A stretch of 64,000 bases of DNA from Eledone cirrhosa (Eukaryota), in NCBI GenBank assembly GCA_964016885.1, contig OZ024741.1:159216001-159280000 (forward strand), given 5' to 3'. Below are positions 890 through 41,680 of the stretch, in pieces. Every line of letters starts with the position of its first letter. Position 1 is the first letter of the stretch. The notes beneath the pieces were generated by a model. The model saw only the letters and a list, made by a program, of their open reading frames with translations, was not told where the DNA came from and searched no databases. The position numbers and the translations under genes are program-made.

Positions 890-1014
890 TCATTATTTAA
901 TATATAAATGGCTTCTACAGGACTAGAATTGTTTCATTCATATGAGATAATGTTGATTTCATATGAAGGAAACGGTTCTAGTCCTGAAGAGGCCATTTCT
1001 ATATTAAATAATGA
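890..1014. repeat. Imperfect ~125-bp fold-back hairpin
   Basis: TCATTATTTAATATATAAATGGCTTCTACAGGACTAGAATTGTTTCATTCATATGAGAT pairs with the reverse complement of 958-1014; short loop. Confidence 0.85.
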
Positions 1015-1154
1015 CACAAATAAAATTAGAATTTTATTTCTCGCCCTAGCACAGCTGATACATAACTGTAAGTATGCATATGTACACACATATATATACA
1101 CACAGACACACACACACACACACATACACATTTATTTATATATATATATATATA

Positions 1155-1700
1155 CACACACACACATATATACATATGTATATATGGGCTATATCGAACA
1201 TTAATAATATTCAATTCGTTTGTAAACAAAAGGCCCGATTAAAGCTGTGCCGTGCAGATGACAAATTGTCATCCGTTTGTTTGGCATTGAGGAACAATCA
1301 ACATGCTTCTGGGTCATTACCCTTCATCAGGTCTGTATATCTCTGCCAATCTGTTGAACAGTTGAAAATATATAGTATTTTCTTAAATACACATCGGCTG
1401 AGTAGCCTCATTTGCATACTGAGCGAATTACGGCTGGCCGTGCCAAAAACTAATAATGAAATTAGAATATTACATATGTTCAATTGTTCAACAGATTGGC
1501 AGAAGTATACATACCTGATGAAGGGTAATGACCCAGAAACATGTTGATTGTTCCTCAATGCCAGTGTTGAATAAATGGATGACAATTTGTCATTGGCTCG
1601 GCACGGTTTTAATTGGGCCATTTGTTTATAAACGAATCAAATATTATTATTAATGTTCAATATAACCCATACATACATATGTATATAAGTTTGTGTGTGT
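1155..1700. mobile_element. Aged fold-back element with a hammerhead-like motif in each arm (putative Penelope-like terminus)
   Basis: Arms ~1160-1380 and ~1465-1700 are inverted and moderately diverged. CTGATGA-A-GGGT-AATG-ACCC-A-GAAAC-AT-GTT at 1515-1545 with the inverted copy at ~1300-1331. Flanked by TA/CA microsatellite. Confidence 0.6.
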
Positions 1701-1734
1701 GTATATATATATATATATTTTTTTTTTTTTTTGC

Positions 1735-1890
1735 TATGTAATAAACAATATAAGACAATTATTCCATTTCGAGCTCGTCTGTCTTTGTGAAACCTTTGGT
1801 AAATGGAATAATTGTCTTATGTTGTTTATTACATAAGCAAATAGCTCTGTAGCTTACATAGAGCACTCTCCTTTCCTACGGAAACACTTG
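1735..1890. repeat. Short fold-back (35-bp arms) with one-sided tail
   Basis: 1735-1769 is the reverse complement of 1801-1835 with one mismatch; about 55 bp of unpaired sequence follows, then (TA)n. Confidence 0.8.
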
Positions 1891-2552
1891 ATATATATAT
1901 ATATGTGGCGGTGCACCAGCATGACCTCAGTCTGTCAACTGGCACACTTAATAGAGTAATATATATCAGTATTAAATATAGAACCGATAGGCCCATCTTT
2001 TCACCAGGCTCCCAAGTGTGCGGACTATGGGGAGCAATAACACAAATCCACCAACCTAAATACATGGCAATGGACCTGTCTACACACTCCGATACAGACT
2101 ATTACACCAAAGCCTCTATGAACTCCTTAAAATCCATGTTTTTCTTCCCCCTCCATTTTCTTTCATGCATCACTCCCATAGTCCATTGCCTTTCATCCTT
2201 ACGGAGTCAATAAAATAAAATACCAGTAATGCACTGGGGTAATTGCTGGTACTTGTGCCAAAAGTAGAAACAATTATTATCATCATTATACTATGGGAGC
2301 TGGAGCTGTTGCAGGGCATCCCACTCAAACCAGGACGTGGAAGGGCTTGTCATATGCAATAAACATCACTGTGATGGTGTCGAACACCTCAGAAATCGAG
2401 GTGGCTGGCACCTTCTTGGAGGACTATGAAAGGTTGACATCAGTCAGTAATTAAACATGTTTTATCTGTTGTATATAATTGATCCTGACCATCTCTATAT
2501 AAGGGTATTGTGAAGAATATCTTTAGGAAATGAAACATGGGTAGATTAAATA

Positions 2553-38299: not shown

Positions 38300-38790
38300 A
38301 ACATTTTTTTTAATGCAAATGTTGCATCAAGCTGCAATAGATTGGATAGTTTAGCTATTCTGGATTGAGTTGCATCAATAAGTTGAATATTGTGTGTACA
38401 GTTGTAATTGTCTTTGAGTTAGCTATTATGCATATGTGCATTATTATGTCAGAAGTTATGTCTGTGCACTTTATGTTAAGTATTGTATGCAGAGTTCTAA
38501 TCTGTTGTTGATTTGTGGTTTTATCCTAGCTATTAGTATTCTTTCTATGATTCTATGGTTACCTAAGTTCCTCTCCCTGGCTCCAATAATAACTGTTGTT
38601 TTTGCATTTGTCTAAGTGTGTATTGAGATTTTCTTTAATGTGGGTGTGGGGAGATCTAATGGTCCTACCGATGTAAAAGTCCCTGCATTTGTCACATTGA
38701 ATGCAGTATATTACATATGTTTATTGGCACATACATGTGTCACGAATGGGGCAGTTTGCTGTTGTTCTCCCTGGGCTGCTTTGTCAATAT
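38300..38790 (-). pseudogene. Penelope-like GIY-YIG endonuclease remnant (third family)
   Basis: 38655-38717 on the minus strand reads YVIYCIQCDKCRDFYIGRTIR, preceded by CPIRDTCMC. Confidence 0.7.
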
Positions 38791-39239
38791 ATATATATCA
38801 TCAACATTTAGCATCTGTTTTCTCTGCAAGCAAGAGCTGGACATGTCATCATAGACTAGTCAGTACCTTACTAAGCCTCTGACATCCAGGTAGATTTTAT
38901 CATGGCACCAACACTAAAGAAGTTGTCATGTCTTTGACACAGCTGAAGAGTCATCCCCATCTTTTATTTGCCAGGTTTTCTACAGCTGAATGTCCTTCCT
39001 ATCACTAACCCCTTTACAGAGTGTAGAGAGTGCATTTATCATGTTCACCAATACTAGACGCATTGTCATTCCCTCAACACAAGTAGAGAATACTCTTGAC
39101 CCATTTTGGCATTGTTACTACACCAGGGTGCTCTTCCTGTCACCAACATATATACATATACACACATATAACTAACACAAAGAAAATATATCATCATCAT
39201 TTAGCATCTGTTTTTCCTGCTAGAAAGTGTATGTGTGCA

Positions 39240-41219
39240 TCATCATCATCATCATCAACGTTTAACGTCCGTGTTCCACGCTTGCATGGGTTTGGACGGG
39301 GGTTTTCCCACTTGAGGCAAGAGTGATTGTCTTGCTCGCATAGGACTGTCTGGCGGGTTTTCTACAGTTGGATGCCCTTCCTAACACCAACCACATTTAC
39401 AGTGTGGGTCTGGGAGGTTGTTACCGTGTTGCCTACACGGCCACATTACAGCGTGGACTGTGTTTTTTTGTCGTGACACCTACACGATCTCATTTGTTTC
39501 GGCCTGGATGGTGAGGCACCAACATAACTTTACATAGAAGGGGGCGGTGTGGATGGGGTGCGTGTGTGTGTGGGGGGGGGGGGGGTATTTTGTTAGAGAT
39601 GCCTACTGACTGTAGTAGGTTTTACTTTGTATTTAGGTAAGGTGGGTCTTCTCTATTACTGAGTACCGCCAAAGGTCTCGGTCCAGTAACATTGTCTTGG
39701 TGAGGTGTAAGTGTGTGAGGTCGGAGTTTATCAGCTCGTCCCAGGTTTTTCTGGGTCTGCCTATTCCGTGGCTACCGTCTATCTTTATTGCCCTGCACTT
39801 TGTTATACAGCTATCGTCCTTCATGCGCATCACGTGACCATACCAACGTAGCCTTCTCTCTAGTAAACAACATCTGATCCCTCTTATTTCTAATTTTTTC
39901 CTTAGTTCGTTTATGCTTTGTCGTTCACGTATATTACTATTACACATCCAGCGGAGCATGCAAGCTTCGTTTCTCTCTAGTCTGCGTATATCCTCTGCAC
40001 ACAATGCCCAGGTCTCACTGCCATGCAACATTGCTGTTCGTATGCAGGCATCGTACAACCTGCCTTTCATTTTTAGGGAGAACCCTTTAGCGGCTAATAG
40101 TGGTATAAGCTCTCTGAACTTTTTCCACCCAGTTCTGACTCTAGCTACTGTACTTTCAGAGCACCCTCCCCCACTGCTGATTTTGTCACCCAGGTAACGG
40201 AAGCTGTCCACTATTTCTATAGAACCCTCTGCGCAGTTGAAAGAGCTAGTATTTTGTGGGCACTTGCTGCTACTTATTGCCCCAGAACACCGGCCACATG
40301 TAAAATCTATGTTCTTAGTTAGCTTACCTGTGATCCCACTACATCTTTTATGAACCCAAACTTTGCATTTGGGACACAAAATGGAATTTCTACCTACGCC
40401 TTTCCTACACTCTGCGCATGGCCACTTCCCGGAGGGGACCGCCGCCTTATTTTCTTTCTTACAAACTAGAACTTTAGTCTTAGCCAGGTTAATTTTAAGG
40501 CCTTTTGATTCTAGCCCGTGCTTCCATGTTTGGAATTTCTTCTCTAGCTCGGCCATTGATTCAGCTATGAGCGTTAGATCATCTGCGTATAGGAGTTCCC
40601 ATGGGCAGCCGGTCTTGAACTCCACTGTTATAGCCTGGAGGGCAATAATAAATAGTAGGGGGCTAAGAACAGAGCCCTGATGAACACCAACTTTTACACT
40701 AAACTCTTCACTATATTCGTTGTTAATTCTAACCTTGCTGACTGTTTCTTTATACATGGCTTGTATAGCTCTCACAAGCCATTCATCAACACCTAGTTTT
40801 CTAAGAGCCCACCAGATAATGGAACGGGGGACTCTGTCGAAGGCCTTCTCCAAGTCGACGAAAGCTAAGTATAGGGGTTTACTTTTAGCTAGGTACTTCT
40901 CCTGTAGTTGTCGTACAATGAAAAGAGCGTCTGTGGTACTTTTTCCTGACACAAACCCGAACTGCATTTCATCTAGATCAATTCGCTCTCTGATTAGTTG
41001 CGCTATTACTTTTTCCGTGACCTTCATGACCTGGTCGATTAATTTAATGCCTCTATAGTTACTCCTATCTAGGGCATCTCCTTTACCCTTATAACAGTTA
41101 ACGATAATGCTGCTACGCCAGTCCTTCGGAACAACCCCACTCTGTATGACTTGGTTGACTATCCGGGTGACCATGGTGTGTCCCACCGTACCAGATGCCT
41201 TCAGCATCTCGGCAACTAT
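39240..41219 (-). mobile_element. RTE subfamily A copy, 5'-truncated, uninterrupted RT ORF
   Basis: The homologous part of ORF 39633-41315 starts at IVAEMLKASG; full 3' UTR and (GAT)n tail; 5' end abuts TA-rich sequence. Confidence 0.95.
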
Positions 41220-41471
41220 TATATATGTAAATACTATATACATATAAATACTATATACAAATAAATACTTAGAAAATGTAGAAAATCTACAGCGCACAAA
41301 AATAACTGTAAACACAGCTTAGAAAATTGCGTAAAATATTCTTATATACAGAAAAAGTGACCAGCAGCCACTGCAGAGAAACAAACTCTGTACTGCTCAA
41401 ATCTATATACAAAATATTGTCAAACATATATATATATATATATATATATATATATATATATATATATATAA

Positions 41472-41680
41472 TATATAAGAACAAAAGATTGTTAAAGGAG
41501 TTCCATGTATTTTATTATGCGCATTTCAAAAACAAATATCATCATGCAATAATATATGGAACTCCTTTAACCATCTTTTGTTCTTATATATTATGTATAC
41601 TCCAGTCCCACAAACTGTAGAGTGCTTCTTATCCGATATCTGCATTGCTTTATTGTACTACAATAAAACTCACCTCCTAC
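41472..41680. repeat. Fold-back (33-bp arms) with ~90-bp one-sided tail between (TA)n runs
   Basis: TATAAGAACAAAAGATTGTTAAAGGAGTTCCAT and ATGGAACTCCTTTAACCATCTTTTGTTCTTATA. Confidence 0.75.

Follow-up and report, generated by a model that had tools for sequence, protein, structure and literature searches.

Palindromic stubs in (TA)n of Eledone cirrhosa read as truncated ends of Penelope-like elements, probably primed from both target ends

A 64,000-nt stretch of the Eledone cirrhosa assembly GCA_964016885.1 (3.0 Gb; contig OZ024741.1, positions 159,216,001 to 159,280,000, forward strand; hereafter the window) contains ten short inverted repeats, here called stubs, in which two arms stand head to head and one of them carries a one-sided tail. 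On sequence comparison we assign all ten to 5′-truncated 3′ ends of several families of Penelope-like elements (PLEs) inserted in (TA)n. The stubs are ordinary PLE debris, a known footprint, and the new class of ribozyme-bearing fold-back elements that a sequence-only reading of the window had envisaged fails. Their shape probably arises at insertion, by priming from both cut target ends at two fixed internal sites of the element RNA.

Results

The ten stubs of the window

The stubs, with one further D-family insertion that was absent from the sequence-only reading, are listed below; hammerheads were read from core boxes and stems, by pattern and by eye, and are predictions throughout.

824..1014, minus strand: family A stub; tail ~824-889 with a degenerate bulged hairpin at 863-882, tail-bearing arm 890-948, tail-less arm 956-1014; the intact hammerhead portion is the 3′ half only.
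1015..1716, minus strand: family B stub; tail 1015-1075, arm 1140-1379, loop 1380-1465 (the end of the preceding tandem unit, unit ~410 nt), tail-less arm 1466-1716; hammerhead cores at 1330 (-) and 1515 (+).
1730..1889, plus strand: family C stub; arms 1730-1769 and 1801-1841, tail to 1889; the loop is the 3′ half of a long-stem hammerhead; bulged hairpin at 1844-1864 in the tail.
2787..3357, plus strand: family D stub; arms 2787-3029 and 3035-3301, 56-nt tail; hammerhead cores at 2955 (-) and 3109 (+); ATG at 3276.
15440..16532, minus strand: locus E, an older D-family stub; tail 15440-15502, tail-bearing arm 15503-15830; the tail-less arm exceeds it by 336 nt and contains a GIY-YIG fragment at 15829-16146 (+ strand).
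22803..23040, minus strand: family F stub, putative Hydra clade; 78-nt tail, arms 22878-22940 and 22978-23040; bulged hairpin at 22852-22875.
26223..26522, plus strand: family G stub; arms 26223-26336 and 26358-26468, 54-nt tail; the hammerhead itself falls outside the stub.
27829..27929, plus strand: additional D-family insertion; antisense -97..-56 joined to sense tail -60..0.
30162..30589, minus strand: family H stub; 39-nt tail from 30162, arm to 30415, tail-less arm 30422-30589, truncated by a piece of an RTE long interspersed element (LINE); hammerhead-variant cores at 30386 (-) and 30451 (+).
31092..31335, minus strand: family I stub; tail on the left, arms 31123-31206 and 31253-31335, loop part of the tail-less arm; tail and hammerhead related to H, the hammerhead lying upstream, outside the stub.
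41463..41682, plus strand: family J stub, putative Hydra clade; arms 41463-41511 and 41551-41599, loop part of the tail-less arm, 83-nt tail with a bulged hairpin at 41599-41623.

All ten inverted-repeat pairs reported earlier were recovered, and their division into several unrelated sequence families held, with seven groups: A (890), B/G (1155, 26228), C (1735), D/E (2792, 15439), F (22801), H/I (30161, 31095) and J (41472). The arms of a pair are 88-100% identical (A 52/59, B 216/240, C 39/40, D 240/243, E 278/317, F 62/63, G 102/108, H 168/168, I 78/83, J 46/49). In the additional insertion at 27829-27929 the two pieces overlap by 4 nt only, so that it is an inversion without a hairpin.

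The one-sided tails are real, and the two that had been left undelimited (A and B) are now placed on the left. The tail is constantly on one side, as had been proposed, and 72/72 BLAST links between tail-oriented elements are same-strand. The claim of (TA)n on both sides needs correction at A, where B's tail lies on the right, at C, with poly-T on the left, and at H, whose right arm abuts the RTE LINE piece; the family tail of H is 39 nt and not 86, the apparent extra length being due to the arm shortened by that piece. Hammerhead-like cores had been described in both arms of at least four loci; after a stem filter this stands for B, D and H, and E has a degenerate core in one arm only. Cores in both arms follow from the mirror copy on the opposite strand. 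The enclosed GIY-YIG fragment was confirmed in E and matches the domain of a D-family parent (L091, see below) at 74%.

Stubs of unlike families pile up in single TA tracts, both in the window at 890-1890, where A adjoins B's tail and C follows B, and at L013, L038, L048 and L078 (L numbers denote loci outside the window); TA tracts are therefore repeated landing sites.

The arms map to the 3′ ends of Penelope-like elements

Parents encoding a reverse transcriptase (RT) and a GIY-YIG domain were found for D (L091-L093, L140), H (L178), F (L210/L211) and J (L216), so the expectation that the arms map to PLE 3′ ends was borne out for D/E, F, H and J. The best 30 D loci all stop at one tail base, nearly all before (TA)n, and stretch variably 5′ into RT and GIY-YIG coding sequence. 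L091 gave Pfam matches to RVT_1 (E 6.6e-05) and GIY-YIG (E 3.2e-04), both below the Pfam cut-off. In L140, a 4.1-kb tandem full-length relative of D, the open reading frame (ORF) begins in the pseudo-long terminal repeat (pLTR) and runs through the tail, the 56-nt D tail coding for the ORF N-terminus; the same arrangement is described for Adineta Pen2a (PMC3846280; here and below, citations refer to parts of the sources). For H the linked frame has 873 aa and contains YVDD and GIY-YIG.

The F parent consists of 3.54-kb tandem elements with an intact 784-aa ORF, to which 138/138 nt of the window stub are identical, and the ORF of the J parent is similar. Both share a CxCX5C linker, a C-terminal GIY-YIG, a hammerhead and (TA)n insertion, without CCHH. 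Their motifs (RWR, SDKT and CNCPDRSIC in L210; RWI, SDKT and CNCPVRTKC in L216; that is, RW[R/I], SDKT, CxCX5C) place F and J in the Hydra clade as far as sequence motifs can tell. The parents of D and H fall outside Hydra, with SDKG/TDKS and a CCHH-type endonuclease. F had at one point been linked to a CCHH-type GIY-YIG at L083, an assignment replaced by the 100%-identical Hydra parent. At L083 and L180:89-1100 a pLTR resembling that of F (86% over the final 200 nt) directly follows a CCHH-type GIY-YIG whose CxxxCxxC linker differs from the Hydra parent; this is possibly a pLTR swap between clades or a chimera.

The pLTR stems from tandem or partial-tandem copies, as seen in the 3.54-kb F tandems and the 4.1-kb L140, and a type I hammerhead is predicted in it for A, B, C, D, F (a U3-A8 variant), G, H, I and J. 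The stubs also have the 5′ truncation, inverted upstream copy and one-sided tail of endonuclease-positive (EN+) PLE insertions.

The layout exceeds chance expectation

As an unbiased sample we used 80 stretches of 10 kb (800 kb) from 16 places picked blind to content. It held 126 short-spacer inverted repeats, of which five exceeding 3 kb were dropped. Among the 121 kept, 33 had one arm directly next to TA and, on the opposite side, a 25-110-nt tail followed by TA, compared with a mean of 1.3 (maximum 5 in 100 sets) for randomly placed intervals. This excess is somewhat overstated, since masking stops arms at TA runs and so favours the layout, and since at least one match (L164_6335) is a pair of short interspersed elements (SINEs) beside a family J tail. 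The density in the sample, ~40 stubs per Mb, extrapolates to the order of 100,000 in the genome, and the family queries that gave candidates returned 858-2,198 each. Families F and J were traced by pattern search, their words being too common for the DNA similarity search (0 candidates).

In raw reads of a separate study, family F sequences stop in (TA)n at two points, the tail end and a site 80 nt inside it, in 3/3 runs, with 1,319-7,262 reads for each site; strand-switch joints of family A were present in 4/4 runs, one of them from another organism. The libraries behind these checks are not free of amplification. No RNA data set was listed among those that carry the sequences searched. A read pile-up at L210:4294, considered as evidence for F fold-back, is probably a library cut site, and F joints are not demonstrable there. 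A count of 4,337 for a family G "inner site" was discarded as microsatellite noise.

Junctions vary and outer ends are fixed

A census of the sample plus the window (864 kb) with seven family references yielded 30 head-to-head pairs, and all their junctions differ. The tail-less arm is the longer one in 18 pairs, the tail arm in 7, and the two are equal in 5; overlap between the arms is 10 nt or less in 6 and absent in 3. This census replaces an earlier tally of arm reach (59/28/27), in which loci were biased, BLAST pieces were split and some entries were counted twice.

Within families the tail-less arm has a fixed outer end, 39 nt before the tail end in H, 56 in D, 78 in F, ~83 in J, ~54 in G, ~47-61 in C and ~66-86 in A. 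Two fixed outer ends, separated by 39-90 nt, characterise each family, with TA following at both. At the outer end of the tail-less arm TA follows in 11/11 D, 11/11 F, 5/7 J, 7/8 C and 2/5 A copies. The TA targeting suggested from the window holds. The geometry is identical when the arms measure 0.7-2.6 kb and include the ORF (L178, L091, L092, L176); at L178:964-6886, a 5.9-kb H-family insertion with two ORF-bearing, kb-long arms head to head, the tail-less arm still ends 39 nt short. Both arms carry tails in L090, L184, L190, L206, L020, L092 and L094, and other copies end at the inner site, which is consistent with two independent starts.

These features suggested to us that the stubs are probably made at insertion by priming from both cut target ends at two fixed internal RNA sites. 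The GIY-YIG domain would cut both strands of (TA)n, and each target 3′ end would prime reverse transcription at one start site of the element RNA. Both cDNAs would halt early; their 3′ ends would be joined by short complementarity, often within a hammerhead stem, and then filled in. The tail would be the RNA between the two start sites, with a bulged hairpin, 6-10 nt on the 3′ side of a start site, likely positioning the enzyme in Hydra-type families. The hammerhead would travel with the pLTR as a passenger, and the shape is not expected to require it.

The sequence-only reading had taken the hairpins for snap-back products. On this rival explanation a single cDNA would fold on itself and be copied back to a block near the target junction, and later deletion of the centre would make the arms unequal. 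Such a process was proposed for head-to-head PLE palindromes (PMC3846280), and it agrees with the perfect folds of D and H, which have almost no loop, and with junctions that, judged by eye, often lie in self-complementary hammerhead stems. In its simple form it conflicts with the 18 of 30 pairs whose tail-less arm reaches further 5′ and with the three pairs without overlap. The inverted arm of E (336 nt) and that of J hold sequence that the tail arm lacks, which fold-back of a tail-primed cDNA cannot yield. Double-tailed copies, copies with the inner site only and TA after both ends in raw reads also speak against it, and we consider snap-back unlikely.

Some observations nevertheless weigh against two-end priming or the assignments behind it. 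Private variants are shared within the arms of one insertion 4-6x more than across insertions (per column, same versus different insertion: H 0.0037 vs 0.0006, D 0.0120 vs 0.0019, F 0.0337 vs 0.0082, some F pairs being mis-paired or duplicated), and variants common to both arms are also what snap-back predicts; arms of unequal length or without overlap could also result from later asymmetric loss of the palindrome centre. Arm reach was taken from single BLAST pieces against one-locus references, some of them short. None of the raw reads examined spans a window locus itself. A, C and I have the tail, the fixed ends and, in longer copies, the hammerhead, and no parent ORF was linked to them at the loci examined. 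Rfam made no hammerhead call in the window among the best 150 of 236 matches, nor on L209; the matches it gave were set aside as chance microRNA-like hairpins only.

The most far-reaching proposal of the sequence-only reading was a self-propagating, ribozyme-bearing fold-back class, transcribed as hairpins and re-inserted whole. High copy number, the non-coding families B, G and F-299 (see below) and certain C and I copies that repeat with identical structure could be cited in its favour. Identical fold-back points at many loci, the check suggested for it, were not seen, as 0/30 junctions recur; the recurring C and I copies have common flanks and are therefore passengers of larger duplications. 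Copies that bear ORFs show equal geometry, up to kb scale, and the non-coding families are tandem units and not hairpins. We regard this class as very improbable. In one case a C hairpin, its flanks identical, lies within a larger repeat found on several contigs (L065-L075, L079); in another a family I stub is part of duplicated loci (L233-L242, L246), and C2H2 zinc-finger ORFs occur in at least two of these. An apparent fixed fold-back in H (a cluster near -290) was a selection effect of the 254-nt query, its junctions differing, and what looked like a fixed inversion in family I belongs to the element itself, the loop in the window being part of the tail-less arm.

Inverted repeats beside TA also resemble Tc1/mariner-type miniature inverted-repeat transposable elements (MITEs), a true Tc1 element lies in the window at 19387-21001, and the 100% identity of the H arms could suggest an assembly or amplification chimera. 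A MITE origin is contradicted by arms that are not terminal, given the one-sided tail, vary in length, match PLE ends and meet at 30/30 distinct junctions. Most arm pairs have diverged by 1-12%, and both the family-fixed ends in another study's raw reads and the family A strand-switch joints in 4/4 runs argue against chimeras. This explanation is largely refuted, and we give it hardly any credence.

Non-coding tandem hammerhead units

Two families and one derivative have no coding capacity of their own. G is a 422-nt tandem unit with one hammerhead, whose longest kept stop-free frame is 53 aa; none of the G hammerhead copies examined has coding sequence upstream. B is a 411-nt tandem unit with one hammerhead, and in 14/14 other loci the match to its tail lies directly upstream of its body. 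F-299 (L209:790-3100) comprises eight 299-nt tandem units that derive from the intact F element through an internal deletion; the stop-to-stop frame measures 114 aa. This tandem is 5′-truncated and ends at the F tail end in (TA)n, which marks it as a young retrozyme-like derivative. At L187/L188 the spacing is 257 nt.

By their sequence B, G and F-299 agree with the definition of non-LTR retrozymes, namely non-coding tandems of 170-420 nt with one type I hammerhead each. Of the non-autonomous class proposed from the window a core remains: non-coding families are present, but they travel as tandem hammerhead units and acquire the hairpin shape at insertion, like the coding families.

A bulged hairpin as candidate start signal

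In 18/38 tails we found a bulged hairpin (RYTC-upper stem-loop-stem-T(W)-GARY), mostly 6-10 nt past the inner end, in several unrelated families and with about ten different upper stems. Shuffled tails gave a mean of 0.17 (maximum 2 of 200), antisense tails 0 and random 100-mers 0.8%; because this very set of tails served to define the motif by eye, the shuffles overstate its significance. With one tail per cluster, the lower stem was found near the tail start in 8/20 and an upper stem of at least 3 bp in 7/20 (shuffled 0.05), the C and F cluster representatives being among the misses.

A second copy beyond the outer end was predicted independently of the motif definition. In family F this gave 311 pattern matches (control 0), and all 100 matches listed are one read-through hairpin, ~7 nt past the tail end. 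Support elsewhere is thinner: J has the lower stem with a weak upper stem in 20/25 matches, C gave only one chance-like match, the same pattern test did not establish the second hairpin in A, and D, H, G and B lack the motif although their ends are fixed, so the bulged hairpin cannot be a general rule. For Hydra-type PLEs we propose that a twin bulged RNA hairpin may set the RT start 6-10 nt upstream of each copy and that a dimeric enzyme may prime both cut ends there, which alone would explain the inverted copy and tail; the same machinery would insert non-coding hammerhead tandems (animal retrozymes). We see the case for this proposal as evenly balanced.

Mini-tandems of ~80 nt and 150-160 nt of the family A tail region occur at L252 and L249; where they are joined, reading through gives a sequence similar to the beginning of the bulged hairpin.

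Other repeats in the window

The Tc1/mariner DNA transposon at 19387-21001 has 211-bp terminal inverted repeats (97% alike), lies in a TA array and is unrelated to the stubs. LINE copies, which we take to be RTE-type, lie at 23594-25874, 31919-34196, 26634-27698 (-), 39238-41220 (-), 56165-57211 and 62101-63814, two of them 98.5% alike; the segments 24783-25864 and 26634-27698 form a long inverted pair flanking locus G. SINE-like repeats cluster in both orientations at 2186-2715, 7738-10252, 50440-51101 and 60709-60866, and inverted pairs of them can mimic the hairpin class. A 41-bp tandem repeat of ~8 copies occupies 2-330, with a TGACGTCA motif in several units.

Discussion

The footprint described here is in large part that of published PLEs, for which an inverted 5′-truncated copy, a one-sided 30-40-nt tail, a hammerhead and a preference for (TA)n are reported (PMC8557442; PMC3846280; PMC8969392). 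Like those EN+ insertions, the stubs have a head-to-head truncated copy, a pLTR hammerhead, a tail that overlaps the ORF start and AT-rich or (TA)n targets; they differ in that the tails of the window and sample families measure 39-90 nt, as against 30-40 nt, and that most copies are tiny. Opposite-strand hammerhead pairs 100-700 bp apart have been ascribed to truncated PLEs, and the U3-A8 core was noted there (PMC4209133). Active Penelope families are listed in an octopus, and this anatomy is not included in the portions covered (PMC13282606). Units of the Hydra clade are described as generally under 3 kb (Craig et al. 2021, PMC8557442), whereas the F and J parents reach 3.5 kb; the main text of that description, supplements aside, makes no mention of a bulged hairpin.

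How PLEs form the inverted copy and tail and choose internal start sites is stated to be open (PMC8557442; PMC11167929). That the two arms extend independently of each other speaks against self-priming as published. In vitro, Poseidon_Ac showed cutting and extension of both strands, two internal start sites that bound the tail, and hammerhead cleavage that was dispensable (PMC11167929). That work concerns a single family in vitro with starts in an AC-rich stem-loop; the present material consists of genomic copies of several families, with the mark lying 6-10 nt 3′ of the starts. In the open literature covered, Repbase and supplements apart, we found no published description of the twin hairpin or of two-end priming of PLEs.

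L1 twin priming offers a related precedent, as both target ends prime on the element RNA and give an inverted junction. In L1 no region is present in both arms and the position of the second start varies, whereas the stubs have two constant start points and arms that mostly overlap.

Retrozymes have been proposed as non-autonomous PLE derivatives, and PLE mobilisation was deduced from co-occurrence and pLTR similarity (PMC7229834; bioRxiv 10.64898/2026.07.22.740005). Like the metazoan non-LTR retrozymes of these papers, B, G and F-299 consist of non-coding tandem units of 300-420 nt, every unit having one type I hammerhead. The portions of both sources covered here contain no insertion-footprint evidence for retrozymes. 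B, G and F-299 bear the PLE integration footprint as such, with constant ends in TA, a truncated 5′ side, an inverted copy and a tail.

The stubs are abundant and readily misfiled as MITEs or microRNA hairpins. They also provide a countable record that favours two-end priming, together with a candidate RNA signal and a young intact element, and the non-coding tandems give footprint-level support for the mobilisation of animal retrozymes by PLEs.

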